Shown one piece after another: positions 31,765-60,667 of a DNA stretch of 64,000 nt (position 1 is the stretch's first letter; each line of letters begins with the position of its first letter). The translations under genes and the position numbers were made by a program. The notes under the pieces were generated by a model. That model did no database searches. It was not told the origin of the DNA and saw only the letters and a list, made by a program, of their open reading frames with translations. This DNA comes from an uncultured bacterium (GTDB taxonomy: Bacteria > Eisenbacteria > RBG-16-71-46 > CAIMUX01 > WJJG01), in contig CAZNJE010000013.1 in assembly GCA_964573295.1 (NCBI GenBank), positions 14,099-78,098 on the forward strand, read 5' to 3'.

Positions 31765-32189
31765 ATGCTGCCACGAATGCTGATGATGACCATCCTCTGC
31801 CTGCTGGCCGCCGCTCCATCGGGGGCGGACTCGGGAGTGCGGGCTCGTCCGCCGAGGGCGACCCTGTCATCCGCACCGGGGTCACGGTGGTTTTGCCCCG
31901 GGGCAAAACTCCCCACCCCTATCGGGCCGACTGGTTCACGCTCAACGGCGATGGCGAACTCACCGGCCTGTCGTACGTCCAGGACTTCGGCGCCGGCTAC
32001 GGTCCGATCGAGATCACCAAGACCAACAGCGTGGGCATCGTGCGCGATGCCATTGGACAGTGGTGCCAGGCCCGGTTCGGCAGTAATGTGTTGGTCGCCG
32101 CCGAGACCATGACCGGCATCCACGGCCACCGGCTGCACGCCTTGCCGCATGACCGGCTGCGTGAGGTGATGAAGGCCTACGGCCGCTAG
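31765..32189 (+). pseudogene. DmpA/P1 (S58) peptidase relic with two internal deletions and a frameshift
   Basis: Frame 1: signal peptide plus VRAR. Frame 3: EGDPVIRTGVTVVLPRG...WFTLNGDGELTG...ITKTNSVGIVRDA, joined directly to the C-terminal VAAETMTG...ALPHDRLREVMKAYGR. Confidence 0.8.
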
Positions 32190-32219
32190 CGCGACCGCAT
32201 CTGGCGCGACCGCATCCGG
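32190..32219. repeat. 15-bp tandem duplication (CGCGACCGCATC(T/C)GG)
   Basis: Seen directly after the DmpA-like stop codon. Confidence 0.8.
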
Positions 32220-32269
32220 GCGCAACCCCATCCAGCCATCGCTTGATGAAGGTGAGAGGAGCCCCACCG

Positions 32270-34450
32270 ATGCCAAGCAACCACGTCACCACGATCGCGC
32301 GCGAGCTACAGCTCGAACCGCAGCGCGTGGAAGCCGCCGCCCAACTGCTGGGCGGCGGCGCTACGGTGCCCTTCATCGCCCGCTATCGCAAGGAAGCCAC
32401 CGGATCACTCGATGAGGTGGCCATCACCGCGATTCGCGACCGGCTCGAACAGCTGGCCGAACTCGACCGGCGGCGAGAAGCTATCCTGAAGTCGCTCACC
32501 GAGCGTGAGCTCCTGTCGCCCGAACTCGAAGCGAAGATTTCCGCCGCTCCCACACTGGCCGTCCTCGAGGACGTCTATCTTCCCTTCCGTCCCAAGCGGC
32601 GCACGCGAGCGATGATCGCGCGCGAGAAAGGTCTCGAGCCCCTGGCCGAACTGTTGTTCGAGCAGCGCGGCGATCGGCCCCTCGATCCGGAAGCGGCCGC
32701 CCGCGACTACATCGATCAAGAGCGCGGCGTGCCCGATGCGGCGTCGGCACTGGCGGGAGCTCGCGACATCATCGCCGAGCAGGTCAGCGAGCACGCCGAC
32801 GCGCGGGCCCGTTTGCGCGAGTTCTTCAAACGTAAGGGGATCCTGACCTCACGCGTGGCCAAGAACAAGGAGACCGAGGGCGCGAAGTACAAGGACTACT
32901 TCGACTGGCAGGAGCCGGCACTGGCGGCGCCCTCCCACCGCGTGCTCGCCATGCTGCGTGGTGAGAAGGAGGGCTACCTATACCTTCACATCGCGCCGCC
33001 CGAAGAGCCGGCCCTCGCATTGCTCGAGCGTCTCTTCGTGCGCGGCACGGGCCCGGCCTCCCAACAGGTGGCCCTGGCCACGGAAGACGGCTACAAACGG
33101 CTGCTGGCCCCCTCGCTGGAGACCGAACTGCGCGTGGCGATCAAACTGCGCGCCGATGATGAGGCGATCCGGGTCTTTGCCGACAACCTGCGTGAGCTGC
33201 TGCTGGCGCCACCGCTGGGACAAGAACGAGTGCTGGCCCTTGACCCAGGCTTTCGGACCGGCTGCAAGCTCGTGTGTCTGGATGCCCAGGGCGCATTGCT
33301 GCACCACGAAACGATCTACCCGCATACCGGCGGCGCTCGGGCCGAAGAGGCATCCGGGCGGTTGCGTGACCTTGGTCAACGTTTCGAGATCGAGGCGGTC
33401 GCGATCGGCAACGGTACCGCCGGACGGGAGACCGAGCGCTTTGTTCGTGCGGCCGGCCTGCCGAAGGCCATCGCGATCGTGATGGTCAATGAGTCGGGAG
33501 CGTCGGTCTACTCCGCATCCAAAGCCGCGCGCGAGGAGATGCCCGAGCAGGACGTCACCGTGCGCGGGGCCGTCTCGATCGGCCGGCGCCTGATGGATCC
33601 GCTGGCCGAGCTGATCAAGATCGACCCCAAGTCGATCGGCGTGGGACAGTATCAGCACGACGTCGACCAGGGCGCGCTCAAACGCAGTCTCGACGATGTG
33701 GTGATGAGCTGCGTCAACAGCGTGGGCGTGGACGTGAACACCGCCAGCCATCAGCTCCTGGCCTACGTCTCCGGGCTGGGCCCGCAGCTCGCCCGCGGAA
33801 TCGTGGCCCACCGCACCGAGCACGGGCCGTTCCCTCACCGGCGCGCGTTGCTCAAGGTCTCACGCCTGGGGCCGAAGGCCTTCGAACAGGCTGCCGGGTT
33901 CTTGCGCATCCGAGGCGGGGAACATCCGCTCGATGCCAGCGCGGTGCATCCCGAGAGCTATCCGATCGTTGACGCCATGGCGCGTGATCTGGGCAGCACG
34001 GTCGGCGATCTGCTCCAAGACCAGAAGCAGCGAGAGCGCATCGATCTCGAGCGCTATGTGGATGATCGCGTTGGCATGCCCACCCTGCGCGACATCCTGG
34101 CCGAACTGGCGCGGCCGGGACGCGATCCGCGCGAACGCTTCGAAGCCTTTGCCTTCGCCGAGAATGTCGCCGCCATCGAGGACGTCCGGCCGGGCATGCT
34201 GCTGCCGGGCATCGTGACCAACGTCACCGCCTTCGGCGCCTTCGTCGATATCGGTGTTCATCAGGACGGACTCGTCCACATCAGCCAGCTCGCCGACCGC
34301 TTCGTGCGCGATCCCGCCGAGGTGGTCAAGGTGGGGCAGCAAGTATCGGTGGCGGTGCTGGAGGTCGACCTGGAACGTAGGCGCATCTCGCTGTCGATGC
34401 GTTCGGCCGCCGGCGGCTCGAGGAACCGAGCCCAGACTGATTCAGGTTGA
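32270..34450 (+). CDS. tex: Tex family RNA-binding transcriptional accessory protein
   Basis: TVPFIARYRKEATG, DPGFRTGCK, NESGASVYSAS, DPKSIGVGQYQHD; C-terminal S1 domain. Confidence 0.95.
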   Translation: MPSNHVTTIARELQLEPQRVEAAAQLLGGGATVPFIARYRKEATGSLDEVAITAIRDRLEQLAELDRRREAILKSLTERELLSPELEAKISAAPTLAVLEDVYLPFRPKRRTRAMIAREKGLEPLAELLFEQRGDRPLDPEAAARDYIDQERGVPDAASALAGARDIIAEQVSEHADARARLREFFKRKGILTSRVAKNKETEGAKYKDYFDWQEPALAAPSHRVLAMLRGEKEGYLYLHIAPPEEPALALLERLFVRGTGPASQQVALATEDGYKRLLAPSLETELRVAIKLRADDEAIRVFADNLRELLLAPPLGQERVLALDPGFRTGCKLVCLDAQGALLHHETIYPHTGGARAEEASGRLRDLGQRFEIEAVAIGNGTAGRETERFVRAAGLPKAIAIVMVNESGASVYSASKAAREEMPEQDVTVRGAVSIGRRLMDPLAELIKIDPKSIGVGQYQHDVDQGALKRSLDDVVMSCVNSVGVDVNTASHQLLAYVSGLGPQLARGIVAHRTEHGPFPHRRALLKVSRLGPKAFEQAAGFLRIRGGEHPLDASAVHPESYPIVDAMARDLGSTVGDLLQDQKQRERIDLERYVDDRVGMPTLRDILAELARPGRDPRERFEAFAFAENVAAIEDVRPGMLLPGIVTNVTAFGAFVDIGVHQDGLVHISQLADRFVRDPAEVVKVGQQVSVAVLEVDLERRRISLSMRSAAGGSRNRAQTDSG

Positions 34451-34604
34451 GGACGTTGAAGACTTCAGAGTCTCCTGCTCCACAATTCACTCGGTATGGT
34501 GCGCAAATTTGGTCGCGACATTGAGCAGTTTGCCTGCCCGAGTTTCCGGCTCAGCGAAGCCTGCTCCCGCCATCCGCGACCTCGCCGCACCCACCTGGGA
34601 GCGT

Positions 34605-35087
34605 TCACGGAGACCGTAGCGGCACCGCGATCCGCCCCAGGATCGCCTCCAGACCGCGGACATCGGCCTCGGTAAAGGCGCCCTTGCGATCCGAGTCCAC
34701 GTCCAGCACGCCGATCAGTGTGCCCGCCGCGTCACGGAGTGGCATGACCACCTCGCTGCGCGAGCGCGCGTCGCACGCCACGTGATCCGGAAACGCCTCC
34801 ACATCCTCGACCAGCACCGGCTCGCCCCGCTTCACACAGGCCCAGCACACACCGTCGGGGCCGGGCAGAACCGCGCAGGCCAGCGGGCCTTGATAGGGTC
34901 CCACGATGAGCCGATCACCGGCCAGACGATAGAACCCCGTCCAGAAGTAGTGGGGCATCTTGTGATGCAGGAGGGCCACGGTCGTGGCCATGCGGGCGGT
35001 GAGATCGCCGGTCTTCTCGAAGAGCTCGGCCAGTTGCAGGTCGATGCGCTCGTAACGTCCAGCCAGACTTTCAGATCCTGGGGCCAT
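34605..35087 (-). CDS. GAF-domain protein (free methionine-R-sulfoxide reductase-like)
   Basis: FWTGFY, VGPYQGPLAC, GVC, FPDHVACD, SEVVMP, GVLDVDS. Confidence 0.85.
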   Translation of the reverse strand: MAPGSESLAGRYERIDLQLAELFEKTGDLTARMATTVALLHHKMPHYFWTGFYRLAGDRLIVGPYQGPLACAVLPGPDGVCWACVKRGEPVLVEDVEAFPDHVACDARSRSEVVMPLRDAAGTLIGVLDVDSDRKGAFTEADVRGLEAILGRIAVPLRSP

Positions 35088-35120
35088 GCTCTGTACTCTC
35101 CCATTCTCCGGCCGATGCGC

Positions 35121-35150
35121 TTGGCACGGCTTGGCTTGAACCGATATGCT
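35121..35150 (+). promoter_or_regulatory. Sigma70-like promoter TTGGCA-N18-TATGCT
   Basis: Sequence match; the implied start site near 35157 coincides with the 5' end of a long hairpin. Confidence 0.45.
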
Positions 35151-35157
35151 AACCGCC

Positions 35158-35300
35158 GAACCCGAGCATGACCTGCGTACGAGGGTCGCAGCCCAGGTCG
35201 ACGTTCGAGTACCGGCAGCCGTAGGTCGTACGCTGGGGATCGCCGGCCGAGGACCTCGTACCGGTGGCCCTCCGTGCACAGGTTCGCCGCCAGTGGGTTC
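35158..35300 (+). ncRNA. Candidate rod-shaped structured RNA (6S-like or unknown leader)
   Basis: Nested pairings found by hand: GAACCC/GGGTTC, GACCTG/CAGGTT, GTACG/CGTGC, AGGGTCGC/GTGGCCCT, AGGTC/GACCT, CCGGC/GCCGG. Confidence 0.4.
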
Positions 35301-35332
35301 CCTCGCAACCGTGGAATGGGAAGGGTCGAGAC

Positions 35333-36529
35333 ATGCGAGTGCTTCTCTTGGGCGTGGGCATGCAAGGCAAAGCCGCCCTCCACGACCTCGTGGCCAGCAC
35401 CGAGGTCACCGGTATCCTGGCCGCCGACGCAAACCTCGATGGCCTGCGTGCCCACGCGGCCCGGATGGGGTATGAGGCCTGTGGCCACCTGCAGTGCGTA
35501 CCCTGTGACGCGGACGACTCGCGGCAACTCAGGGTCCTCTTCGAGCAGCGGCCCGATGTCGTCATCGACCTTCTGCCGGTCCACTTCGGTCACGCGGTCG
35601 CGCAGCTTGCCATCGAGCATCAGGTGGACCTGGTCAACACGATGTACGTACGTCCCGAAATCCGCGCCCTTGCCGATCGCGCCCGAGCCCGCGGCGTCAC
35701 CATCCTGCCGGAGTTCGGCCTCGATCCCGGGATCGACCTGGTTCTCCTGGGCGAGGTGGTGCGCTCGCTGGATGAGATCGAAACACTCGACAGCTACGGC
35801 GGCGGCCTCCCCGAACCCGATGCCGCCGAGCCGCCTCTGCGCTACCGCGTGACCTGGACCTTCGCCGGGGTCTTGCGCGCCTATCGCCGCGCGGCGCGGC
35901 TCGTCGCCGATCGCGGTGTGCGGGAAATTCCACCCGAGGAGATCTTCGCCCCGCAGCACATTCACCCCGTGGAGGTCGACGGCCTGGGGAGGCTCGAAGC
36001 CTATCCGAACGGAGATGCTCTCGCCTTCGCCGAGGCAGCCGGGCTGGATCCGGGGCGCCTCCGATCGACCGGCCGCTATACCCTGCGCTATCCCGGCCAT
36101 GCCGAGCTATGGCGATTGCTGGGTCGGCTGCACCTGCTCGACGAGGAGCCGGTCTTCGTCGGCGGCCATCCGGTGAACCGGCGCGACTACCTGGCCGGCG
36201 TGTTGGGGCCGCACCTCGAGCTCGGAGAGGACGAGAGGGATGTGTCGATCGTGCGCATCGAGGCGACCGGACGGCGCGAGGGACGGCGCGTTCGCGTGAT
36301 CGCCGAGCTGATCGACTGGCGCGATCACGAGTCGGGACTCACCGCCATGAGCCGGACGGTGGGCTTCACCGCCAGTATCGGCGCCCATCTGCTGGCGCGC
36401 GACGCACTGCCCGGGCCCGGCCTGCTCTCGCCGGTGCGCGACGTTCCCTACGATCGCTTCACCCGCGAGCTCGAACGACGCGGGATCCGCACGACCCTGC
36501 GGATCGAGACCGAGGAGGGAGCTCGATGA
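35333..36529 (+). CDS. Saccharopine dehydrogenase family protein
   Basis: N-terminal Rossmann motif LLGVGMQG, FGLDPGID, YGGGLP, YRVTWT, LEAYPNG, TLRYPGH, AMSRTVGF. Confidence 0.9.
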   Translation: MRVLLLGVGMQGKAALHDLVASTEVTGILAADANLDGLRAHAARMGYEACGHLQCVPCDADDSRQLRVLFEQRPDVVIDLLPVHFGHAVAQLAIEHQVDLVNTMYVRPEIRALADRARARGVTILPEFGLDPGIDLVLLGEVVRSLDEIETLDSYGGGLPEPDAAEPPLRYRVTWTFAGVLRAYRRAARLVADRGVREIPPEEIFAPQHIHPVEVDGLGRLEAYPNGDALAFAEAAGLDPGRLRSTGRYTLRYPGHAELWRLLGRLHLLDEEPVFVGGHPVNRRDYLAGVLGPHLELGEDERDVSIVRIEATGRREGRRVRVIAELIDWRDHESGLTAMSRTVGFTASIGAHLLARDALPGPGLLSPVRDVPYDRFTRELERRGIRTTLRIETEEGAR

Positions 36530-36978
36530 CTCTTCCCCAACCATCCCGACCGATCGAGATCCTGCTCATCGAGGACAATCCCGCCGACGTCCGGCTGACC
36601 GAGGAGGCGCTGCTCGAAGGCCGGATGAGCAATCATCTCAGTGTCGCCGGCGACGGCGAGACCGCGCTCCAGATGCTCAGGCGCGAAGGCGTCTACGCAA
36701 ACCAGCCCCGGCCCGATCTCATTCTGCTGGACCTCAACCTACCGAAGCTCGATGGGCGGGATGTACTGGCCCAGCTCAAGCAAGACCCGGTTCTTCGCAA
36801 GATTCCAATCATCGTCCTGACGACCTCGTCGGCACGTGAGGACATCGAGCAGAGCTACCGGCTCCATGCGAACTGCTACATCTCGAAGCCGGTCGAGTAT
36901 GGGGAATTCCTGGAGGTGATCCGCCTGATCGAGGACTTCTGGCTCCGGAGAGTGCGGTTGCCGGGCGTATGGGACTAG
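36526..36978 (+). CDS. Single-domain response regulator (Rcp1-like)
   Basis: ILLIEDNPAD, PDLILLDLNLPKLDG, VLTTSS, ANCYISKP; ATGA overlap with the upstream gene. Confidence 0.95.
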   Translation: MTLPQPSRPIEILLIEDNPADVRLTEEALLEGRMSNHLSVAGDGETALQMLRREGVYANQPRPDLILLDLNLPKLDGRDVLAQLKQDPVLRKIPIIVLTTSSAREDIEQSYRLHANCYISKPVEYGEFLEVIRLIEDFWLRRVRLPGVWD

Positions 36979-36995
36979 GAAGTCCAAGGCAGAAT

Positions 36996-37880
36996 CTAGT
37001 CTTCGGGCTCCAGCCGGGCACCGCAGTACTTGCAGTGCACCGCATCCGGGTCATGTCCCTCGGCGGCACACATCGGACAGGCTTGGGTGGAGACCATCTC
37101 CCGGCCCGTGCGCGCCAACTCCACCGAAACGATACCGGTCGGCACCGCGATGATCCCGTAGCCCATGATCATGACCACCGACGCCAGCAACCGTCCCAGC
37201 ACCGTGGCCGGGGCCAGGTCGCCGTAGCCCACGGTCGTCATGGTGACCACAGCCCAGTAGATACTGATCGGAATGCTGGAGAAGCCGCTCGCCTCGCCCT
37301 CGATCAGGTACATCAAAGCCCCGACGATGACAAGCAGCGTCACGACACCTGCCAGAAAGACGACGATCTTGCGAGCACTGGCGCGCAGGGCGGTCCTCAG
37401 ATGCTCCGCTTCCCCCACGAAGTAGCCAAGCTTGAGCACGCGGAAGACGCGCATCATACGCAGCGCGCGGATCACGGCGAGGGATTGTGTGCCGGGAAGG
37501 ATGACGCTCAGGTAGGTTGGCAGAATCGCCAGTAGGTCGACGATCCCGAAGAAGCTTCGCGCATAACGTATCGGGCGGCCTACGACCAGAAGCCGCATGA
37601 GATACTCCGCGGAGAACAGTCCCGTGATGATCCACTCGATGGTTCGCATTGCCGCGCCGTAGCGCTCCCTGAGCGGCGCGACGCTCTCCAGCAAGACGGT
37701 CGTGACGCTGAGCACGATCAGTATCAAGAGGGCTATGTCGAACGTCTTGCCGGCAGCCGAATCGGCTTCGAAGATGATCTCGTGCGCGCGGTGTCTCCAC
37801 GGCGCCTGGTGGGCTGTCGGCGGGCCGTCCGGCCGGCTCGATGGCGTCATCGGTGTCGTCGATGTCGTCGGTTTCATCAC
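36996..37880 (-). CDS. Six-TM potassium channel / ion transporter
   Basis: S4 helix IRALRMMRVFRVLKL; filter TTVGYGD; C-terminal CxxC...CxxC. Start could be 37848. Confidence 0.9.
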   Translation of the reverse strand: MMKPTTSTTPMTPSSRPDGPPTAHQAPWRHRAHEIIFEADSAAGKTFDIALLILIVLSVTTVLLESVAPLRERYGAAMRTIEWIITGLFSAEYLMRLLVVGRPIRYARSFFGIVDLLAILPTYLSVILPGTQSLAVIRALRMMRVFRVLKLGYFVGEAEHLRTALRASARKIVVFLAGVVTLLVIVGALMYLIEGEASGFSSIPISIYWAVVTMTTVGYGDLAPATVLGRLLASVVMIMGYGIIAVPTGIVSVELARTGREMVSTQACPMCAAEGHDPDAVHCKYCGARLEPED

Positions 37881-37915
37881 CGAGAACCCTAGGCGAGGCC
37901 CCCCGCCGAATCAAG

Positions 37916-38568
37916 ATGACACTGCGATCGGCACATGCACTCCGCCACCGGGCCGCCATTCTCCTGGCCAGCTTCGTATCCGCCGGGTACGTCGGGTGTA
38001 CCGGGCACGCCGGGTGTGCCGGGTCCAGGACCCAACACGACGGCGCCATGGTCACGGTTACTGATCACCGGCCCCAATGTGACCGCGCCATGACCGAGGA
38101 TGCCGGTCAGCAAGCCCAAGATGATGCGGTCGACCGGTGGGTTCATCGGTGGATGCAGGAGCGCCACATCCCAGGCCTCTCCCTCGCGGTCGTCAAGGGA
38201 GGCCGCGTCGTCAAGACGCGCGCCTACGGACTCGCAAGCATCGAGCTCGAGGTGCCCGCGAGTACCACGACCGTCTACGCCCTGGCCCCTGGTACAGCCG
38301 TCTGGCGCTGACCGAGGAAGGACTTCGTCCGGGCAACCGGTTGCATCGCCTTCACGTCGAGTACCCCGAATTCATGCGCACCGCCGGTGGTCTGAACTCC
38401 ACGGTCTCCCTTCATCGCTACCTGGATGACGATCTCACGGTCATCGTGCTCACGAACTGCCAGGGGGCGGGACCCAACGAAATCGCCGAGGGCGTGGCAC
38501 GCGTCTATGTTCCCGAACTCGCCGAATCCCCGGTGTTTCTGTCCGCTGCCGCCCATAACGAAGATTGA
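37916..38568 (+). pseudogene. Serine hydrolase (beta-lactamase fold) lipoprotein relic with two internal deletions
   Basis: Lipobox YVGC; HIPGLSLAVVKGG...YGLASIELEVPASTTTVYALA breaks just before SxxK; shifted frame gives PWYS...AGGLNSTV, joined to RYLDDDLTVIVLTN. Confidence 0.8.
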
Positions 38569-38665
38569 GCTTGCAAGGAACCCGGCGAAGCTGCGTAATC
38601 CCTGCCCATAAGCGACCTCAACTGAAGTCCGATTCCCATCTACCCCGTGCGGAAGAGGTGGCTCG

Positions 38666-40264
38666 ATGGATCCGAACTCATCCCCACGCATCGCCGGGTC
38701 GGTACCGACTCCGGGGCGACGGCGCACCGGTGCCCAGCCGGGCTATCGATCGCGCTCCAAACCGTGCCGTGGACCGCGACTCGGGACGCCCCGCGGAGGG
38801 CGATGCCGTTCGCGCCGTGAATCCGACCGCGCCAGCGGATTGATCCCCTGGCTCCTCCTTCTGATCCTGGGCCTTTCGGGGCAGCTTGGCGGACCAGCGC
38901 ACGGGGATTCGAACACGATCACCCTCTCGGATGCCCTCGAACGGGCCCTGGCGAACAATCCCGAGCTGCAAGCCAGCCACCACGCCGCCGAAGCGGCGCG
39001 GTGGACTTCCCGCCAAGCAAAGGGCCAACTCCTCCCCTCGCTCAACCTTCAAAGCGGGTTCACCCGTCTGGACGAGGAGACGGTCGCGCGGGCCAACGCC
39101 CTCGGTACCGAGTTCACGATGTACTTCCCCGACAGCAGCGGGATGCTTCAACCGGTGACGATCGAAATTCCTCAGACCGTCTTTCGTGACGGCTACCGAA
39201 CGACCCTGACCGCCCAGTGGCTGCTGCTCAATCCCTCGGTGTGGAACACGGCATCGCTGGCCGGTACGGCCGCCGGCGTCGCCCGCGCCGAACACGAGGT
39301 AGCGCGCCAGCGAACGATCCACCAGGTCATCTCCCGCTATCTGGACCTGCTCAAGGCCCACGAGGCCGCCACGATCCAGCGGGATCACCTCGCCCTGGCT
39401 CGCCAGAGCCGGGAGCAAGCCGAGCGGCTCTACGATGTCGGCCGTTATGCCGAAGCCGATGTGCTGCGCTGGCGCGTGGAGGAAGCGCAGCAGCAGCAAC
39501 TCCTGGTCCGGCAGGAGAGCGCCCGGCACATCGCCGCCCTGGCGCTGGAGAACGCCCTCGGCGAAATGCCCCTCGGACACACGCGGCCGGTGCCGGAGCT
39601 GCCCGCGCCGCTCGAGCACGCGCTGGAGGGTTTCCGCGTCCAGGATGAGACCGCCTGGCACGACTTCTTGGACCGATCGCTCGATCCGGCGGTCCGAGCC
39701 ACGCCGACCTACGCGATCCTGGAGGGCGCCGTGCGTAGCGCCCGGCTCGAACACCGGCAGAGCACCTACGAGTTCCTGCCCACGCTGGTCGTGAGCGGCA
39801 GCTACGGGTGGCAAGAAAACGACACCTTCGAGCCCGATGGAGAGAAAGCCTGGTCGGTGGGTGCCACCCTCAACCTACCTCTCTTCGACGGACTGCGGAA
39901 TGTCTCCGGCTTCCAGGCCAGCGACCACCGCCTGGCCGAGGCCCGCCGAACGCTCGAGACCTCCTACCGGAATATGCTGTTGGCCGCGGGGAGCGCCCGC
40001 ACCCAGATTCAGAGTTTCGTCGAGCAACTTCGCTTGGCCGAAGCCAGTCTGGAGAGCGCCCGGCGCAGTTTCGAGATCCGGAAGAACAGCTTCTCGCTGG
40101 GGCGTCTCAGCAACATCGAGTGGATCGACGCCCACCTGACGCTACGCACCGCTGAACAGAACCGGACCCTGGCCTACTACGATCTGATCCAATCGATCGC
40201 CGACTACCACCATGCCATCGGACGCATTGATGAACTGACATCGATCCAAGGGAGAAGACGATGA
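38666..40264 (+). CDS. TolC family outer membrane factor
   Basis: TLSDALERALANNPEL; two OEP repeats; the true start may lie downstream. Confidence 0.9.
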   Translation: MDPNSSPRIAGSVPTPGRRRTGAQPGYRSRSKPCRGPRLGTPRGGRCRSRRESDRASGLIPWLLLLILGLSGQLGGPAHGDSNTITLSDALERALANNPELQASHHAAEAARWTSRQAKGQLLPSLNLQSGFTRLDEETVARANALGTEFTMYFPDSSGMLQPVTIEIPQTVFRDGYRTTLTAQWLLLNPSVWNTASLAGTAAGVARAEHEVARQRTIHQVISRYLDLLKAHEAATIQRDHLALARQSREQAERLYDVGRYAEADVLRWRVEEAQQQQLLVRQESARHIAALALENALGEMPLGHTRPVPELPAPLEHALEGFRVQDETAWHDFLDRSLDPAVRATPTYAILEGAVRSARLEHRQSTYEFLPTLVVSGSYGWQENDTFEPDGEKAWSVGATLNLPLFDGLRNVSGFQASDHRLAEARRTLETSYRNMLLAAGSARTQIQSFVEQLRLAEASLESARRSFEIRKNSFSLGRLSNIEWIDAHLTLRTAEQNRTLAYYDLIQSIADYHHAIGRIDELTSIQGRRR

Positions 40265-44510: not shown

Positions 44511-44618
44511 CCGGGCAGCGCACGCCTGGTGCCAGATGCCTGACAGCAAATGCCTCGCAGGCAGATGCCCGACACGCAAGCACCTCGCAGGACCTCGCAG
44601 GAAGATGCCCGACACGCA

Positions 44619-45975: not shown

Positions 45976-45976
45976 G

Positions 45977-49015: not shown

Positions 49016-49291
49016 GGTAACCTCCCCTCCATGTGGATGAACGCTCCTATCTTGCGACAACTTCCGCAGGTCGCGCAAGGGGGACTGGGACGGCGGACGA
49101 AGGGTTGCAGGGATCGACTGATTGCGTTCCGCCTGATGGTCCTTCCGAGGAAAACTAGTGAATCCCGGCTGTGCCTCCTGGAATCGGTCCGACCACTGAA
49201 TCCTTCTTGATCGGCTTACGACCAAACGGCACAATCGACCGTGCCGTTCGACGCCGAACGTACGGTTCGAAGCCCCATCGGAGCTGGATGA

Positions 49292-50115: not shown

Positions 50116-50149
50116 CGGTCGCCCCCCAAGACACTCAGATGCCCAATGG

Positions 50150-51312: not shown

Positions 51313-51668
51313 GACTTAGCCTCCTTCCGCAGGCGGTCGAACACCGAGCTGACCAGCGACCACTGCTCGAGCTGGCGGGCGAGCTCTTGACGGCCGGCTG
51401 CTTCGATCCGGTAGAAGCGCCTACGCCTGCCGCCCGCGGCGCCGTCCCAGAATGAGGTGATCAGCCCCTGCGCCTCGAGGCGCCGCAAGACCGGGTAGAG
51501 CATGCCGTCGGACCAGGCGATGCGTTCCCCTGAGAGCTCCCGGATGCGCTTGATCAGGGCATACCCGTAGCCGTCCCCCTGCTCGAGCAGGGAAAGCACG
51601 AGCGGAATGGTGGACGCTGCGACGAGTTCCTTCGATAAGGTCATCTGGGGCCGTACGGGTCGATCCAT
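51300..51668 (-). CDS. PadR family transcriptional regulator
   Basis: GYGYALIKRI, GMLYPVLRRLE..GLI, RRRFYRI...G..EL. Confidence 0.95.
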   Translation of the reverse strand: MDRPVRPQMTLSKELVAASTIPLVLSLLEQGDGYGYALIKRIRELSGERIAWSDGMLYPVLRRLEAQGLITSFWDGAAGGRRRRFYRIEAAGRQELARQLEQWSLVSSVFDRLRKEAKSCST

Positions 51669-51672
51669 GACT

Positions 51673-51703
51673 GCACTATACATAGTGCTGCTATGTATGT
51701 CTA
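51673..51703 (-). promoter_or_regulatory. Sigma70 promoter TAGACA-N17-TATAGT, 6 nt before ATG, with overlapping palindromes
   Basis: Palindromes ATACATAG-N5-CTATGTAT (51678-51698) and GCACTAT-AC-ATAGTGC (51673-51688). Confidence 0.7.
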
Positions 51704-51734
51704 GTCCACTTTCGCGATGATCCGAGGATCTCTG

Positions 51735-53387: not shown

Positions 53388-53740
53388 GGTCGACGTCTCC
53401 CGGCGGGGGAACCCCCTCACCCATTGCGAGGTCCGCTGGATGAGCTTCGCGGGGTGGCTCGCGGAATCTCCGAGCGGTCCTGGATCCGAGCGCGTCTGCT
53501 CCATGAGGTCCGCCCGGCTTTTCCGGGAGTCCTTCGCCCAGCCCCACCGCTGAGCAACTCACCCGGCATCATACGTCAATGTCAGGCTGAGCGACAGGAA
53601 GATGATCGGGCTCCATCCGGGGCGGGGCACGGGGACGGGGACTGGCGACTGTTGGCAACCCCGTGGCGGTCCGTGCTATCATGGATGCGCTCTTGAAGAC
53701 GCAAGCGCATCGCGTGAACCCGCACACAGGAGGAGCCGTC

Positions 53741-55408
53741 ATGGCCAACCTTCACCGCCACTCGGTCCTCACCTTCCCCGGAACAACTCTCATGACTCTC
53801 ATGGCAGCCGCCCTCGTGATGGGCTCGTCTCTGCTGTTGCCCTCAGTGTCCCGGGCCGACACCGAGCTTCTCTGGTCCTTCGCCGGCAACGGCAGCCTGG
53901 AAGCCATCGCCGCCTTCCCGGACATTGATGGAGATGGCGGCCCCGACATCGTCTTCGAAGGCTACGGCAGCGGCCCCTCGGGCGTGGACCACGTCTTCGC
54001 CGTACGCGGCGCATCGGTGGGCACCGGCGAGATGATCTGGTCGGCGCGCCCGATCGGCGGCGCGAGCAGCGGCGGCGGCAGCGGCGACAACTGCCTGCGC
54101 ATGGGACCCGACCTCAACGGCGACGGCTTCCCCGAGGTCCTGCTCGCCACCGCCTGGGGTGGGCGCACCGCCTATGCGCTCAATGGCCTCACCGGCGAGA
54201 CGTTCTGGAGCTTCGACACCTACCTCCAGCCGCAGTCGGGGTGGGTCTACGCGATGGATGACCTGGGCAGCGACATCACCGGGGACGCCGTCCCCGAGGT
54301 CGTCATCTGCTGCGGCAGCTACAACGACCGAATGTACTGCCTGAACGGCGCGACCGGCGAGCAGGTCTGGGTCTACAACGGGCAGGATGCGTCCTTAGAG
54401 ATTCGTTCGTGCCAGGACATCAACAACGACGGCATTCGTGACGTCGTCGCGGGACTGGGCGACAACTCAGTGCCCGAGCAAGTGATCGCGCTCAGCGGCG
54501 CCGACGGCGGGCTCCTGTGGTCGCGCCCCACCGGCGGCTCGGTGTGGAATCTCACCTTCGTCAGCGACCTGGACGGCGACGGCATACGCGAGGTCGTCCC
54601 GGCCCTGTGGGAAGGCGCCTTGATGTGCATCAACGGGCGCACGGGCGCCGTGGAATGGAACGTGAGCGCTCCCTACCAGCAGCGCGTGGCCACACTGCAG
54701 GATGTCAACGGGGACGGCTACGATGACGTGGTCGTTGGATTCAACACGTCGATCGGGGTGCGCGCCTACGACGGCACCGACGGCACGCTGCTCTGGACCG
54801 CGATCACGCCCGACTGGGTATGGGCGGTCGATCAGGTCGCCGATTGCACCCAGGATGGCATAGGCGATGCGGTGGCCGGCGATTTTGACGGCTACATGTA
54901 CTTGATCGACGGGGTGAGCGGCGAGATCGTCTGGAGCTGGCTCAACCCCACGGGCGATAAGATCATGACGATCCGCGGCGTCCCCGACCTCAACGGCAAC
55001 GGCCAGCCCGACGTCGTGGGCGGCACGCAGCTGCTCTACAGCCCGCCGACCGGCGGCAATGTCTACGCCGTCGAGGGCAATCACGAACCGATGTCGGTCC
55101 CCGAACTCGTGCTCGATCAGGGCCATGGCCTGCGCCTTTCGCCGGCTTACCCCAATCCCGCGCACGGGCACGTTTCCTGGAAGCTGGGTGCACAGCAGGG
55201 CGGATACGTGCAGGTGCTCGTCATCGGTGCCGACGGCCGCCGCGTGGCTGAGCTCGGCGGCTTCAGGGCCGCCGCGGGAAGCGAGGTCGGTCTGTCGTGG
55301 AACGGTCTGGACCGCTTCGGCCGGCCGGTGGCCGCGGGCATCTACCACACGCGCGTCTTACTCGACGGCGAGCTGGCGGCACAAGGTCGGGTCGTGCAGG
55401 TTCGGTAA
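53741..55408 (+). CDS. Secreted FG-GAP/PQQ-like propeller protein with FlgD-like C-terminal domain
   Basis: SD AGGAGGAG; repeated D(I/L/V)(D/N)GDG motifs; tail AYPNPA...WNGLDRFGRPVAAGIYHTR. Confidence 0.85.
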   Translation: MANLHRHSVLTFPGTTLMTLMAAALVMGSSLLLPSVSRADTELLWSFAGNGSLEAIAAFPDIDGDGGPDIVFEGYGSGPSGVDHVFAVRGASVGTGEMIWSARPIGGASSGGGSGDNCLRMGPDLNGDGFPEVLLATAWGGRTAYALNGLTGETFWSFDTYLQPQSGWVYAMDDLGSDITGDAVPEVVICCGSYNDRMYCLNGATGEQVWVYNGQDASLEIRSCQDINNDGIRDVVAGLGDNSVPEQVIALSGADGGLLWSRPTGGSVWNLTFVSDLDGDGIREVVPALWEGALMCINGRTGAVEWNVSAPYQQRVATLQDVNGDGYDDVVVGFNTSIGVRAYDGTDGTLLWTAITPDWVWAVDQVADCTQDGIGDAVAGDFDGYMYLIDGVSGEIVWSWLNPTGDKIMTIRGVPDLNGNGQPDVVGGTQLLYSPPTGGNVYAVEGNHEPMSVPELVLDQGHGLRLSPAYPNPAHGHVSWKLGAQQGGYVQVLVIGADGRRVAELGGFRAAAGSEVGLSWNGLDRFGRPVAAGIYHTRVLLDGELAAQGRVVQVR

Positions 55409-55410
55409 GG

Positions 55411-55472
55411 CGCGTCCAACGCGTATCCAACGCGTATCCAACGCGTATCCCATGCGTATTCCATGCGTGTCC
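55411..55472. repeat. 11-bp tandem repeat (AACGCGTATCC x3 plus degenerate copies)
   Basis: Seen directly between convergent genes. Confidence 0.9.
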
Positions 55473-55552
55473 TGCCACGCACGCCGCGATCCTGGAGGAT
55501 GCCCGGGGCCTGATCGCTGGGGCGGAGCAGGGGTAGCCGATCATGGGTCCTG

Positions 55553-56734
55553 TCACCGGGAAAGCAGCGCACCGGACCAGAGCTCGCGACAGAACACGTC
55601 CCAGGGCAGTACCTCGATCCCATCGGCGGTCTGGCGGCGGTCGGGTTCGCGCGAGACGACCAGGCAGCGCCGGGGCGTGCGTTCATCCATGAGCGCGCGG
55701 AGCCCTTTCAGGTCCACGGCGCGAATCTCGCGCGAGGACTTGCACTCGATGGCGAGATCCATGTCGCCGACGATGAGATCGACCTCGAAGCCGGACCTGG
55801 TCCGCCAGAAACTCAGAGGTTGGTCGACCCGCTTGTAGTGCAGGAAGGCCCGCACTTCATTCAGGATGACATGCTCGAAGGCACGCCCGAATGCGTCGGT
55901 TCCTTCTTCGATCGAGCGTACTTCGGGGTGAAGTGCGTTGGCGACCCCCACGTCGAAGAAGTAGAACTTCTCGGTTTCAACAAGCTGCCGCTTAGCGCGC
56001 CGACGCCAGGGCTCCAGCCGAAAGCCCAGCAGCGTGTCGTCGAGAATCTGATAGTAGCTGCGAATGGTGCTGGCCGAGACGCCGCTTTCCCGAGCGGCAT
56101 TCGCGTAGTTGACTTGTTGGGCATGCATAAGCCCGGCCACCCGCATGAAGCGGGTGAACGCGGGGATGTTTCGGGTGGCCGCTTCGTCCACGACCTCCTC
56201 TTTGATGTAGTTGTTGATGTAGGCCTTCAGTAGCGGCGCAGGATCGTCCACCAGATAGTGGGCCGGGAGGGCGCCGTGGCGCAGAAGCCGGAAAAGATCC
56301 ACCTCCCCGATCTCACGGGTGGTAAGAGGCAGCAAGGAGTTGTCCGTGGCCCGACCGCCCAGGAGATTGTGAGATCGTCGGCGGAGCTTTCGGGCGCTCG
56401 ATCCACACAGGATGAACGAGATGGCGGTGTTCTCCAGCAGCCAGTGAACCTCTTCCAGAAGAGGGGGGACCTTCTGGATTTCATCGATCACGACGAGTGA
56501 GGGCCTTTGGGCCAGGAGATGCTCCCGAAGGAGGTAGGGCCGGACGGTCAATTCGGCGCTAAGTTCAGTGTCGAGAAGGTCATAGAAGCGCGCTTCCGGA
56601 AAGGCCGTGTGGAGATAAGTCGTCTTGCCGACTTGACGGGGGCCCCAAAGAAACGCCGCGCTGGATCCGGTGAGCGGATTCGGGATGCGCGTGACCTCCA
56701 AGCGACGCTCAAATCTGGAAATCCGAGGACTCAT
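55553..56734 (-). CDS. AAA_14 ATPase with DUF4143 / restriction-endonuclease-like C-terminus
   Basis: Walker A GPRQVGKTT, Walker B VVIDEIQK, GSSA, KFYFFDVG, FWRTRSGFEVDLI...AIECK. Confidence 0.9.
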   Translation of the reverse strand: MSPRISRFERRLEVTRIPNPLTGSSAAFLWGPRQVGKTTYLHTAFPEARFYDLLDTELSAELTVRPYLLREHLLAQRPSLVVIDEIQKVPPLLEEVHWLLENTAISFILCGSSARKLRRRSHNLLGGRATDNSLLPLTTREIGEVDLFRLLRHGALPAHYLVDDPAPLLKAYINNYIKEEVVDEAATRNIPAFTRFMRVAGLMHAQQVNYANAARESGVSASTIRSYYQILDDTLLGFRLEPWRRRAKRQLVETEKFYFFDVGVANALHPEVRSIEEGTDAFGRAFEHVILNEVRAFLHYKRVDQPLSFWRTRSGFEVDLIVGDMDLAIECKSSREIRAVDLKGLRALMDERTPRRCLVVSREPDRRQTADGIEVLPWDVFCRELWSGALLSR

Positions 56735-56767
56735 GTGCGGAATTTCGCGAAAATCCGCAGATGAGTC
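56728..56767. promoter_or_regulatory. 40-bp near-perfect palindrome over the ATPase start codon
   Basis: GACTCATGTGCGGAATTTCG|CGAAAATCCGCAGATGAGTC; 18 of 20 positions pair. Confidence 0.65.
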
Positions 56768-56769
56768 AA

Positions 56770-57785
56770 CGATTTTACTCGTTTCCCCTCGACCGGCTCG
56801 AGCGGTGGCGGGCGTCGACGCCTTCTTCGTGGGGTACGATACCGGGTTTCACGTCGCCGATGTTCAGAATTCAGCCAACGTCGCACCCATCGGGACAGCA
56901 ACGATCGGGTACTCCGCCCGCGGGATCGACGTGAGTGGGACCATCGTCTGTGTCGCGGACTCGTACGCCGGATTTCGGATAATCGACATTGCAGATCCTT
57001 CGAATCCTGAGACGATCGGGATACTTGATCTGCAAAGAGTCGCATTCGACGCGCAACTCCATGGATCGCTGGCTTTCGTCGTCACACGCTTCACAGGCCT
57101 CGACATCGTGGACATCGCAGACCCCACCAATCCCGAGGTTCTCAGCACGATTGACGTCGGAAGTGGCGCCGGCGCTGCGGCCCGCGATAGTTTCGTCTAC
57201 CTGATTGATTGTAGTTCCACACTATATGTGATCGACATAACAAACCCAGAGAGCCCCGCTATTGTCCATGCAGACTCCGGATGCAGACTCCGGATTCGGA
57301 TATCTTCGCAGTATTGCTATCGATGGTGACCACGTCTATGTGACCGATGGGGAGACCGGCCTCACGATCATGGATCTCAGCACCCCGTCGGTCCCCTCTC
57401 ACGTTGGCGTGCTGCCTATGGAGGGATACGCCCGGGGCGTGGCCGTATCCAACGGGCTCGCGTGCATTGCCGGGGCGCAAGGAGGCATGCGCGTCGCAGA
57501 TGGTAAGCTCACCCACGAGCCCCTGCGTGGTGGGACTGCGTGGTGGGACAATCAGCCCACCTGAATCCGTTTGGCATCGCGGCCTCCGCTGATTACGTCT
57601 TCTTGGGGGCCGGCGATCTGTTCATCTACCCAGCCCAGTGTGGCACAGGTGGTATAGACCCGGATGCATGGCGCACGGGAATCCCCGGCCTGCTAGGCCC
57701 GGGTCGGACAGATCTCGTCTGGGACGAACAGGACGGTTATCGATTTGTGCCCTCAGGAGCGCCTTCACACACAGATCGAGGATGA
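56770..57785 (+). pseudogene. LVIVD-repeat protein relic (5' truncated, frameshifted)
   Basis: LVIVD repeats (FRIIDIADPSNP, LDIVDIADPTNP, LYVIDITNP, LTIMDLSTP). A 13-bp duplication at 57268-57293 shifts the frame, with a second break near 57540. No start or signal peptide. Confidence 0.8.
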
Positions 57786-57883
57786 GGCGCATCCTCCCAC
57801 TCATTGATCTTCGGCCCGGTCGCATCGTCTCTGAGCCGGGATTGACCATTGGAGGAGCCCTGGAGAGACGGTATCTTATCTCC

Positions 57884-58081
57884 ATGGGATCGCATCTAAC
57901 CGAGGAGTACATCGCCCAACTGAGACGGATGACGGGCGAGCAGAAATGGCACGCGGCATTCCGACTCTACTGGGGCGCCCGCATGCTCAAAGCGACCGCG
58001 CTCCGTGAGCAGCACCCGGATTGGAGCGCGGAGCAGATTGAGCAGAAGGTGAAGGAAATCTTCCTCCATGCCCGAACCTGA
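57884..58081 (+). CDS. Small helical protein, partner of the downstream nucleotidyltransferase
   Basis: YIAQLRRMTGEQKW...LREQHPDWSAEQI; overlaps the next gene; TATCTT 6 nt upstream of ATG and no SD. Confidence 0.75.
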   Translation: MGSHLTEEYIAQLRRMTGEQKWHAAFRLYWGARMLKATALREQHPDWSAEQIEQKVKEIFLHART

Positions 58082-58634
58082 ACCTTTCGTGATTTTCACG
58101 AGAAGATTGGAACAGCTTGCCCTTCAGTACATGGTGTCCGGCTCAATCGCCTCGATCTACTATGGCGAACCGCGGCTCACTAACGATGTTGACATCATCT
58201 TGGTCCTTCCGTCGAGCTCAGTGGAGCGCTTCTTGGCTGCATTCCCGTTGGACGAGTTCTACTGCCCACCTCTCGACGTCATACATCTGGAACGGGCGCG
58301 CCCCGAGCGGGGCCACTTCAACCTCATCCACCATGAGACCGGCTTCAAGGCAGATATCTATCTCGCTCACAACGACCAGCTCCACCAGTGGGGACTCGAC
58401 CGCGTGCGACAGGTCTTCCTGGGAACCGATACGATTCGTCTGGCGCCTCCCGAGTACGTGATCATCCGCAAGCTTCAATTCTACAAGGAAGGGGGGCATG
58501 AGAAGCACCTGCGGGACATCCAGCGCATGCTCGTTGCGCTCGACGATCAGTGGAGCCGGGACGAGCTACTGAATCTGATCGGACGCTACGGTTTGGCTGA
58601 TGCATGGAACAGGGCTGAGCACTACACTGCCTAG
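58068..58634 (+). CDS. Pol-beta superfamily nucleotidyltransferase (DUF6036-like)
   Basis: YMVSGSIAS..YGEPRLTNDVDI, FKADIY, APPEYVIIRKL, KHLRDI. Confidence 0.8.
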   Translation: MPEPEPFVIFTRRLEQLALQYMVSGSIASIYYGEPRLTNDVDIILVLPSSSVERFLAAFPLDEFYCPPLDVIHLERARPERGHFNLIHHETGFKADIYLAHNDQLHQWGLDRVRQVFLGTDTIRLAPPEYVIIRKLQFYKEGGHEKHLRDIQRMLVALDDQWSRDELLNLIGRYGLADAWNRAEHYTA

Positions 58635-58709
58635 TCCGCAGGCATGTGCCGGGGATGATCGCCACGCCCGCAACGAACACGCGCCGGCACGTTGTCCTTG
58701 GCCGCCCGG

Positions 58710-59519
58710 CTAACGCAGACGCGGCCAGGCGCCACGAATGCTGCCTGGATGAAACAGGACCCGGCCTTCGCCAAGGGCATCCGGAAGAACGCCTGCCGTT
58801 TCCTTCAGTAGCAGGCCATGCTCGTCCAAGACGCATGTTCCGGCATCATCCGGAGGAAGCACCTCCACGATGCGCCTCGCTTCATCGAGGATCCTGCGCC
58901 AGCGTCGTGACAATTCCCCCGCATCCGGCGTCTCCCCCCGGAAGGACAGCGACGACACCTCCGCCTGCGAATACCGGCTCGACCGGGCGGCCTGTTCGAG
59001 GATGGCCGCGGGGCTGAAGCCGGGATCCTTGCCGCTGGCGGCCCAGGCGAGATACCCCAGCGGCTGTATGGCTTCATCGCTCGTCATCACATCCACCCAG
59101 TCGCGAACCTCCAGACGTCCGACCAGCGCGAGGACCTTGTTGGTGGCCAGATCCACGGGATGGAGCGTCAGGCCCAGTGCCTCATGTTCCACGAGTGGGA
59201 AGAACCGAAAGGCGCTGTCTTGCGCCCACTGGAACGCGACCGCCTCACCCGATCGCCGCGCAACGGCCTCGATGAACCCGGGATACCGGCGCAGCACCTC
59301 GAGCTCACATCCATGGGACTCGAGCAGTGCGCGGTCGGCCTGCCAGCTGGCTTCCACGGCCACCGCGGTATCGTGAAACAGGTCGATGTCTCGCGAAACC
59401 CGCGCCGAGGCGCTGAAGGCATTGAGTGCGGCCGCGCCGGCCACATAGCTCTCACCCCGCTCCATGCGGGCTCGTGCCATTACTCGGCAGAGTTCTCTTT
59501 GGAGTTCTGTAAGAACCAT
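58710..59519 (-). CDS. AbiEii-like nucleotidyltransferase (type IV TA toxin-like)
   Basis: YVAGAAAL...ARVSRDIDLF, DLATNKVLALVGRLEVRDWVD. Confidence 0.8.
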   Translation of the reverse strand: MVLTELQRELCRVMARARMERGESYVAGAAALNAFSASARVSRDIDLFHDTAVAVEASWQADRALLESHGCELEVLRRYPGFIEAVARRSGEAVAFQWAQDSAFRFFPLVEHEALGLTLHPVDLATNKVLALVGRLEVRDWVDVMTSDEAIQPLGYLAWAASGKDPGFSPAAILEQAARSSRYSQAEVSSLSFRGETPDAGELSRRWRRILDEARRIVEVLPPDDAGTCVLDEHGLLLKETAGVLPDALGEGRVLFHPGSIRGAWPRLR

Positions 59520-59707
59520 CGTTTCAGGGTAGCGGCTTTCTGAAACGCCGCCCGGTCTCCGTGCTTCTCAATTGCTTCTAGGACTGTTACAGCTTCCCGG
59601 ATCGTCTGCGGATAGTAGTCCGGACGAAGAAACCACAAGCAACGATCTCGGTACTCGTCGACCAACTGGTAGACCTCGTCCATGGCTGTCGTCTTGTCCG
59701 GCTTCAT
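59480..59707 (-). CDS. Small antitoxin-like partner protein
   Basis: LVDEYRDRCLWFLRPDYYP...VLEAIEKHGD; overlaps the toxin start; TTGTGT-N17-TAGGAT 9 nt upstream of ATG. Confidence 0.75.
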   Translation of the reverse strand: MKPDKTTAMDEVYQLVDEYRDRCLWFLRPDYYPQTIREAVTVLEAIEKHGDRAAFQKAATLKRWFLQNSKENSAE

Positions 59708-59863
59708 GGCACAGCGATCCTAGAACCGGAGGCACACGGACACAAGAACCCTTGGTGGAGCCGGCTGGCCGGCGCCTCGAGGAGGCCACCAACACACCTC
59801 GGTCGCGTGGCGTTTCCGAGCGTACTCCGCCCAGCGGACAAGCGTCCTCGGGCTGGCAGCCGG

Positions 59864-59923
59864 ACTCGCACCCGAACTCGCACCCGAACTCGCGCTCGAG
59901 CTCGCCCGCAGGCTCGCACCCGG
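59864..59923. repeat. 12-bp degenerate tandem repeat x5 (ACTCGCACCCGA)
   Basis: Seen directly. Confidence 0.8.
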
Positions 59924-59925
59924 GC

Positions 59926-60667
59926 TCAACTCAGCGGAATCACCACGTGGCTGCGCAGCGGGCAGCTCGCCATGACGTTCGGCGGGACCTCACCGAGCAG
60001 CAGGAGCATGTCCCCTCCCCCGGCGCCGGTGGGCTTGACCCTGAGCCCATGGCCGCGGGCCCAGGCGGCCACCTTCTCGTAGGCCGGGGGCACGTAGTCG
60101 ATCCTGGCGGCGGCCATGAGCGTCCTGATCCGCTCGAGATACTCGTCGAGTCGGTCCTTCCAGCCCGTGGCGCCGGGCACGCTGCGCAGCGTCTCGGCCA
60201 GCGCATCGCCGGCGGCACGACTGCCAGCGGTGGCCCGCGCGCTGGTAGCGAAGCGCGATCACCCCGACGCACTCGGCGGCCGATGACCCCAGGCCGAGTT
60301 TCAGGTCTCGGCCTTCCTCGTCGCGCCCCCGCAACTCCCACCGGTCGATGCAGGGATCGGGTAGCCCGTGTTCACGTTCAAACTCGGCGAGCTCGGGCAC
60401 CGGCTCGCGCAACGCCGCGGCGATGACCGGGGAACGCTCACCGGGGCCCTCCGCGGGCCTCCCGCCGCCGCCCCCATCTTCCGGCGGCGGGGTGGCAGCG
60501 GGGTCATCCACGTCACACTTCGGCGCCGGGCGCGGGTGGAGGGGCACCTCCTCCTGACGCCGCTCTTCCACATAGAGATAGCGCGGCACGGGACTGAGCA
60601 GCGACCATCCGCCGCGAAGCACGGCATACTCGCCGCAGATCATGACCTTGCCGGGAATGCGAATCAT
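59926..60667 (-). pseudogene. GHMP kinase (phosphomevalonate/mevalonate kinase-like) relic with internal deletion and frameshift
   Basis: PGKVMICGEYAVL and KLGLGSSAA in one frame; KPTGAGGGD C-terminus in another; the central substrate-binding block is absent. Confidence 0.8.

Follow-up and report, generated by a model that had tools for sequence, protein, structure and literature searches.

Why should several unrelated genes on one stretch of a bacterial chromosome each be left as a few protein-like blocks, with the ends usually kept and the middle cut out? This question is raised by a 64-kb stretch of contig CAZNJE010000013.1 from an uncultured bacterium (65% G+C), which is called the window here and is meant at its full length. 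A preliminary description, made from the letters alone, had named four such genes, encoding DmpA, a serine hydrolase, a hybrid kinase and a GHMP kinase. Our comparison with relatives showed that these genes lost internal segments in the lineage of the window, and it added four more relics, namely a DUF2330 gene, an OMP-like gene, an OMP beta-barrel gene and an LVIVD-repeat gene. At least eight relics thus stand against about 50 intact genes and take up about 9% of the 64 kb, although no locus of this kind was found within window positions 1 to 20000. We think it quite probable that these are genuine lineage-specific pseudogenes, which have been eroded by the deletional bias that is normal in bacteria.

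The comparison draws on metagenome runs and on assembled loci. The source run of the window is SRR7048224, a microbial-mat metagenome (X1), and its contigs are identical to the window. Three other runs come from three other studies (X2 sediment, X3, X4 sludge). Sister populations at about 90-97% nucleotide (nt) identity were found in the contigs of X2-X4, in locus L002, which belongs together with locus L086 to the metagenome-assembled genome (MAG) GCA_964654025.1, and in L082, an ENA contig. As seen from the window, X2-X4 and L002 group together in a single clade. The farther relatives L084, L085, L087 and L088 have about 85% identity. A run index search found no run above 97% identity besides the source run.

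The first locus is that of DmpA, a self-processing Ntn hydrolase of the Peptidase S58 family. L002 carries three intact genes here, a DUF2330 gene of 435 amino acids (aa), an OMP-like gene of 229 aa and a dmpA of 381 aa, as compared with about 1 kb of debris in the window, from which about 1420, 150, 109, 100, 621 and 59 nt are gone. The following parts are left.

31254 to 31501, minus strand: 3' remnant of the DUF2330 gene, about its last 80 codons, from alignment with the 435-aa open reading frame (ORF) of L002
31502 to 31539 and 31540 to 31676, minus strand: two islands of the OMP-like gene, from alignment with the 229-aa gene of L002
31765 to 31848, plus strand: DmpA block 1, ATG and signal peptide, the ATG being homologous to L002 position 8729
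31849 to 32083, plus strand: DmpA block 2, corresponding to Peptidase_S58 profile positions 18-91
32084 to 32189, plus strand: DmpA block 3, the 35 C-terminal codons with the stop, from alignment with L002

The body of the DUF2330 gene lies inside the roughly 1420-nt deletion, the left edge of which is at 31487-31501, and about 9 letters at the junction do not align. At this point the contig of X1 jumps over 1429 nt of L002, a stretch that the contigs of X2-X4 cover. The remnant is found upstream of an intact small Cys-rich ORF (30893-31465, minus strand). The 150-nt deletion parts the two islands of the OMP-like gene, and the 109-nt deletion follows between that gene and dmpA. DmpA block 1 ends at the junction of the 100-nt deletion, which shifts the frame, and block 2 ends at the in-frame 621-nt deletion (207 codons), by which residues 141-347 were lost. 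The stop of dmpA is 54 nt upstream of an intact Tex gene (32243-34450). The dmpA of L002 spans positions 1-306 of the 307 in the Peptidase_S58 profile, and its alignment with PDB 1B65 runs over the full length (E = 4e-84), whereas the window matches only positions 18-91. G262/S263 of L002, aligned with G249/S250 of 1B65, fall inside the 621-nt deletion; we take G249/S250 to be the autoprocessing site and the nucleophile described by Bompard-Gilles et al. (2000). The contigs of X2, X3 and X4 cover the L002 locus unbroken, and X1 shows five joints in it.

The serine hydrolase, which has the beta-lactamase / penicillin-binding fold and intact homologues of 365-384 aa, is left in three blocks.

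37951 to 38283, plus strand: hydrolase block 1, N-terminal part up to '...TTTVYALA', corresponding to Pfam Beta-lactamase positions 1-53 of 329
38284 to 38399, plus strand: hydrolase block 2 ('YSRLALTEE...GGLNSTV'), between the 427-nt and the 204-nt deletions
38400 to 38568, plus strand: hydrolase block 3, C-terminus and stop, from alignment with the homologues and L082

A 2107-nt contig of X4 and L082 showed a frameshifting 427-nt deletion at about 38284-38287 with a 4-nt overlap, and an in-frame 204-nt deletion at 38400-38405, which runs between two copies of CACGGT. The protein alignment accordingly has three kept blocks and gaps of 143 and 68 columns. After block 1 the relatives continue with TCGATCACCAAATCG, which encodes S-I-T-K, the SxxK motif. 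As they read TCG ATC ACC AAA directly past 38287, SxxK begins exactly at the cut of the window. The middle part with S-I-T-K is present in X2-X4 and in L082, while the window, at profile positions 1-53 of 329, has neither the SxxK nor a continuous PF00144 domain. The relatives also carry about 184 nt more at 37947/37951 (in X2, 187 nt in place of 3). The stop of the relic is 98 nt upstream of an intact OEP/MFP/AcrB efflux operon (38666-44510).

The hybrid kinase is left in five blocks.

50150 to 50187, 50188 to 50301 and 50306 to 50477, plus strand: kinase blocks 0 to 2, coiled coil and partial PAS, from the contigs of X2-X4
50478 to 50505, plus strand: kinase block 3, a 28-nt island of the receiver domain ('ADPAAYDLVI'), from protein P0103 and alignment with L084
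50506 to 50652, plus strand: kinase block 4, C-terminal part of the receiver and stop, from comparison with P0103 and L084

The homologue search for the kinase gave only P0103, which consists of a HATPase_c tail and Response_reg and represents the 85%-identity relatives, themselves truncated; the gene of the relatives is seen in parts, the X2-X4 forms being longer than that of the window, and the deletion sizes are contig coordinates and not alignments. The PAS call combines one weak PAS_7 match (E = 0.003, below the curated cut-off) with reading of the sequence. The X2-X4 contigs have an extra 155 nt at 50187/50188 and about 125 nt at 50301/50306, and long continuations without a match, one at 50477 (1543 nt onward in X4) and one before 50506 (956 nt). 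Near 50412 a single nucleotide is deleted in the window. To the left of block 3 (50477/50478) at least about 0.8 kb is gone, including HisKA, HATPase_c and the N-terminal REC; to the right (50505/50506) 106 nt is gone, including the phospho-acceptor Asp, and this junction creates a TGA. No HisKA or HATPase_c exists in the window, and the receiver is without the 'TDMAMPG...SEHV' segment that holds the Asp. Block 4 and a convergent intact 232-aa gene (50614-51312, minus strand) share 39 nt at the 3' end of the latter. The same kinase is differently truncated in L084 (3031-3636) and L085 (3030-3635), where only the part from the HATPase_c G2 box onward is left and directly adjoins a divergent Transglut_core gene. 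Beside the kinase, an MNT/HepT toxin-antitoxin pair (49292-50115) is intact in the window; in X3 and X4 its HepT has lost 254 nt internally (49714-49969), and 6 letters at the joint have no match.

The GHMP kinase (phosphomevalonate or mevalonate kinase-like), of which intact 338-aa forms occur in two relatives, is left in two blocks that are 88-95% identical to the proteins of the relatives.

60217 to 60667, minus strand: GHMP block 1, ATG, motif I (PGKVMICGEY) and motif II (GLGSSAAE), from alignments with the relatives
59926 to 60216, minus strand: GHMP block 2, C-terminal domain with motif III (TGAGGGD) and stop, out of frame with block 1

A frameshifting 275-nt deletion at 60217/60216 lies between 8-nt direct repeats (CGCCGCCG), and a further 179-nt deletion is found at 60724/60728, 57 nt upstream of the ATG. 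Motifs I-III are all kept but do not stand in one continuous frame. The stop is upstream of a toxin-antitoxin pair, and just past it there is a 12-mer tandem repeat of 6.6 copies (59849-59927). The relic belongs to an accessory region (57740-62058) together with an AbiEii-like pair and two AAA_14/DUF4143 ATPases.

Two more relics lie between these loci.

45316 to 45975, plus strand: OMP beta-barrel relic, from alignment with the intact 235-aa gene of L082
56670 to 57564, plus strand: pieces of a beta-propeller gene with LVIVD repeats, spread over two frames, from Pfam LVIVD matches

The OMP gene lost its promoter, start codon and 16 codons by a 136-nt deletion at 45315/45316, and it has an in-frame TGA at 45469-45471 where L082 reads GGA. 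Past its stop a perfect 16-mer is repeated three times (45976-46023), and L082 is 31 nt shorter there. In the LVIVD region, 56802-57328 (525 nt) is missing from X3 and X4.

A full-length orthologue stands at the same position in relatives for dmpA, the DUF2330 gene and the OMP-like gene (L002, X2-X4), for the hydrolase (L082, X4), for the OMP gene (L082) and for the GHMP kinase (L086, L087, L088). The relics, the kinase included, have their frames broken by the 100-, 427-, 275- and 106-nt deletions, the 1-nt deletion and the OMP TGA, or they have lost essential elements, among which are the Gly-Ser nucleophile, the SxxK, HisKA/HATPase_c and the receiver Asp. These results agree with the preliminary description that the four loci are collinear mosaics and that the pseudogenes arose by several large internal deletions. 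Close relatives have each orthologue at full length (for the kinase, as far as its parts in the relatives show), and there are deletions in the window of which the sizes and the direction, that is, loss in the window, are now given by the relatives. The kept blocks indeed read like protein, being 85-97% identical to the relatives at the nt level with third-position-biased substitutions in some. Other parts of that description need correction. It gave two to four blocks per gene, which holds for dmpA, the hydrolase and the GHMP kinase, whereas the kinase has five. Both ends are usually kept, but the ATG at 37916, which was taken as the start of the hydrolase, may not be the native one, because the 37947/37951 junction sits 31 nt after it. 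The catalytic cores were said to be gone; the motifs are deleted in dmpA, the hydrolase and the kinase, but not in the GHMP kinase, since it retains motifs I, II and III.

Among 12 junctions, microhomology was 8 nt at one, 6 nt at another, about 4 nt at four, 2 nt at one, 1 nt at one and 0 nt at three, with 0-2 nt at the REC junction of the kinase. Random deletions simulated in the same sequences had a mean of 0.75-1.0 nt, with a chance of 0.02-0.06 per junction for 4 nt or more. The observed 6 of 12 junctions with at least 4 nt therefore has P of about 2e-5, and P is about 0.01 if the two clean cases are taken by themselves. The clean cases are the 204-nt deletion between copies of CACGGT (6 nt) and the 275-nt deletion between copies of CGCCGCCG (8 nt); in each the same repeat stood at both ends and one copy was kept. 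Microhomology is thus enriched over chance, as expected from the preliminary description and found at about half of the junctions when the orthologues were aligned. The special, strongly deletion-biased process that was proposed along with it is not needed. Filler DNA at the junctions was considered as a sign of non-homologous end joining and rejected, because the strings of 4, 9 and 27 letters are diverged original sequence. In a tandem-repeat scan, repeats accounted only for the small length differences of 59 and 31 nt.

The loss of DNA is concentrated in the lineage of the window, and large deletions are unusually many relative to small indels. Over 22.5 kb of alignment with relatives, the window lacks sequence at 21 gaps, nine of them 100 nt or longer, with about 3.7 kb in total, as against 15 gaps missing in the relatives, of which two are 100 nt or longer, with about 0.5 kb in total. 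It has been reported that multi-indel pseudogenes and kilobase-sized deletions are well documented (PMC2817411), that pseudogenes are removed faster than the neutral expectation (PMC2916853), and that the sizes of pseudogene indels fit a power law in which events above 15 nt are few (PMC6054270). The last study found microhomology at 171 of 396 pseudogene deletions and proposed alternative end-joining (PMC6054270). Deletional bias and pseudogene deletions flanked by microhomology are general in bacteria (PMC2817411, PMC6054270), and nothing in our data requires a special repair process.

The age of the inactivation can be judged from substitutions. Intact neighbors of dmpA (24492-34407) have a divergence at four-fold sites of 0.12-0.25 from L002, and those near the efflux operon have 0.08-0.13. 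The differences in DmpA block 2 fall at codon positions 1, 2 and 3 in the numbers 5, 4 and 26, which is a pattern of purifying selection, and those in the OMP relic number 13, 19 and 24, as under relaxed selection. When the divergence at positions 1 and 2 was divided by that at position 3, the ratio was 0.17 for DmpA block 2, 0.67 for the OMP relic, 0.37 for the pooled relics and 0.13-0.8 for intact neighbors, all from small counts and with no outgroup. The preliminary description of little point decay thus suits DmpA block 2 but not the kinase with its 1-nt deletion or the OMP relic with its in-frame TGA. At this low resolution, the patterns in the kept blocks suggest that the inactivation was recent relative to the split from the known relatives. 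In the accessory region around the GHMP relic (57-62 kb), four-fold divergence from L086 is 0.03-0.055 as against 0.12-0.25 of the core from L002 of the same MAG, which suggests a recent exchange of this island between lineages.

Taken together, we propose that dispensable genes, mostly of envelope or exported proteins, lost their function in the lineage of the window, and that deletions of 0.1-1.4 kb then built up inside the dead genes. The deletions may have been made by homology-independent or short-homology joining; candidate pathways are replication slippage at short direct repeats and alternative end-joining after a double-strand break. About half of the junctions still have a single copy of a repeat of 4-8 nt. 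Selection would filter out the deletions that harm the neighboring genes or their upstream regions and promoters. If only neighbor-sparing deletions persist, a relic with both ends kept and the middle gone would be the result. The genes next to the relics are in fact intact and under purifying selection, and the kept ends adjoin intact genes (Tex, the efflux operon, the convergent gene, the toxin-antitoxin pair and the small ORF), which may be why both ends remain.

Several points weigh against this interpretation. Four of the 12 junctions have 0-1 nt of homology, so that no usable microhomology exists there. Large deletions are over-represented, and this may point beyond the textbook spectrum, but these loci had been selected for having large deletions. 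The purifying pattern of DmpA block 2, in a locus with six deletions, indicates that the deletions came in fairly quick succession. Among the known relatives no intermediate with a subset of the deletions was found; these relatives are 3-10% diverged, and for this reason the stepwise accumulation is something that we infer rather than see. Finally, the evidence from the source run consists of Logan contigs rather than raw reads.

A wider proposal is that the mutational spectrum of this lineage may be shifted, so that deletions of 0.1-1.5 kb are as frequent as small indels, or that whole loci may have been hollowed out in single multi-junction events. Frequent double-strand breaks with long-resection end-joining, or a lost repair function, have been considered as possible causes of a shifted spectrum. 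We regard this wider proposal as unlikely; if true, it would mean a fast, deletion-driven gene loss in a free-living uncultured bacterium of the FCB group.

The more specific version, a single complex event per locus, either by template switching such as microhomology-mediated break-induced replication (MMBIR) or fork stalling and template switching (FoSTeS), or by joining after simultaneous double-strand breaks, seems to us likewise unlikely. It would account for the facts that all deletions of each locus are private to the lineage of the window and without seen intermediates, that large deletions are parted by very short surviving islands of 28 and 38 nt, that several junctions have microhomology, and that DmpA block 2 has no sign of a long neutral period. 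Short islands are nevertheless expected when deletions are placed at random: if islands average about 100-120 nt, the smallest would by our own calculation measure 30-40 nt in about 70-80% of cases. The junctions are also of mixed types, from 0 to 8 nt, and no inversions, duplications or templated insertions were seen at them. The number of deletions per locus is graded, from one or two (OMP, GHMP) to six, and sister lineages bear single deletions of the same kind on their own, as in HepT (254 nt), the kinase truncated in L084 and L085, the LVIVD region (525 nt) and, in X2, the 1.8 kb at 12690-14470. These observations agree better with ordinary stepwise erosion.

The preliminary description named assembly collapse as the main alternative. 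The window is a metagenome-assembled contig, and the source sample contains a second relative of 88% identity at similar depth (a 467-nt contig, depth 9.2). A 32-mer (60169-60200) is common to this relative and the window, and because of it a contig breaks 18 nt from the GHMP junction, where the assembly graph branches. However, the independent Logan assembly of X1 reproduces all junctions, and its contigs match 31000-39000 and 45000-64000 with 0 mismatches at an even depth of about 10x. One X1 contig of 11.3 kb spans all kinase junctions, and another of 2056 nt spans the GHMP junction. At the DmpA locus, the only one where an intact form could be tested for, the X1 contigs leave the deleted segments essentially uncovered, with none that covers them. 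Among the X1 contigs aligned to the window there is no intact GHMP allele, only the 88%-identity relative that shares the 32-mer. The repeats at the junctions are 8 nt or shorter, far below any assembly k, which excludes collapse, and 15-17 separate collapses, all inside dispensable genes, would not be credible. The relics are not an assembly artefact; that the genes are whole in the cells and were merely collapsed or mis-joined by the assembler has almost no probability left.

Short forms with the same junctions might also be conserved genes elsewhere, which was the other way in which the preliminary description could have failed. A phmmer search with the 141-aa DmpA relic ORF against 1.84 billion representative proteins found its junction only in P0104, the 100-aa ORF of the window itself. 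In P0178 (L089 5001-5318, JGI 3300023283), a 105-aa DmpA relic from an unrelated metagenome, the N block runs into the C-terminus at a different junction, and an ABC-transporter operon lies 94 nt downstream; the same outcome therefore arose independently there. It is accordingly most improbable that the short forms are functional mini-genes or that the long forms of the relatives came by insertion, even though the 621- and 204-nt deletions are in frame, gene callers annotate P0104 as 'Peptidase_S58' and P0178 is a similar short ORF, because each relic also has a frameshift, a stop or a lost start, the Gly-Ser nucleophile, SxxK, HisKA/HATPase_c and receiver Asp fall in the missing parts, the long forms correspond over their full length to complete Pfam and PDB families, and P0178 has another junction.

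The rest of the window looks like ordinary chromosome, with genes for fructose-bisphosphate aldolase, amidophosphoribosyltransferase, M16 peptidases, two RND efflux systems, Tex and a radical-SAM enzyme. The FlgD_ig or Por_Secre_tail domains at the C-termini of several exported proteins suggest a bacterium of the FCB group. Rfam and tRNA scans found no tRNA and no Rfam RNA in the window. The N-terminal region of an HlyD-type membrane-fusion gene (30259-30544) is 261 nt (87 codons) longer than in L002. A 1.8-kb segment (12690-14470) with a 514-aa ORF that has no Pfam match is absent from X2 and present in X4. In L088 (5408-7892) an RRM_1 gene adjoins an FG-GAP gene, the counterparts of which are at 44607-45188 and 53832-55428 in the window; for this reason the stretches corresponding to 45.2-53.8 kb and 55.4-58.7 kb are absent or elsewhere in that genome.

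These loci offer a clean natural case of the removal of unused genes, in which the direction, the deletion sizes and the junction sequences are known, in an uncultured lineage found in several environments. They suggest that the ends of relics persist since the flanks serve the neighbors. They are also a warning for annotation, as the 100-aa 'Peptidase_S58' and 73-aa 'Beta-lactamase' ORFs are debris and not small proteins. If the excess of large deletions extended over the genome, this lineage could serve to study the rate and mechanism of deletion in nature.

The closest known counterpart is the general deletional bias of bacteria, which, together with the erosion of pseudogenes, was reportedly set out by Mira, Ochman and Moran in 2001. 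The window resembles it in having several deletions per dead gene, in the piecemeal loss of relics and in deletions that exceed insertions, especially in length (about 3.7 kb in the window as against about 0.5 kb in the relatives) (Kuo and Ochman 2009, PMC2817411; Kuo and Ochman 2010, PMC2916853). It differs in that the organism is apparently a free-living member of a mat and not a host-restricted symbiont or pathogen, and in the large share of events of 100 nt or longer at these loci. Danneels et al. 2018 (PMC6054270) likewise found microhomologies of a few nt at about half of the deletions and no long repeats, but their deletions were mostly 15 nt or shorter, whereas the conspicuous ones here are 100-1420 nt. 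Among the latter, which are few, the lengths 621 and 204 nt are divisible by three, unlike 100, 427, 275, 106 and 136 nt.

Slippage between short direct repeats is said to delete sequence independently of RecA, as in the work of Albertini et al. in 1982 and Lovett in 2004. The 204- and 275-nt deletions, exactly between 6-nt and 8-nt repeats with one copy kept, are alike to it; slippage cannot explain all junctions, since several have no repeat. Reductive genomes rich in relics are known from Mycobacterium leprae, Rickettsia and Sodalis. The high density of relics in the window is similar to theirs (for Sodalis, PMC7067036), but here the neighboring genes are intact and no expansion of insertion sequences was seen, as far as one 64-kb window can tell. 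The relics of this window are thus new instances of a known process, and they leave the current understanding of how bacteria erode their dead genes unchanged.

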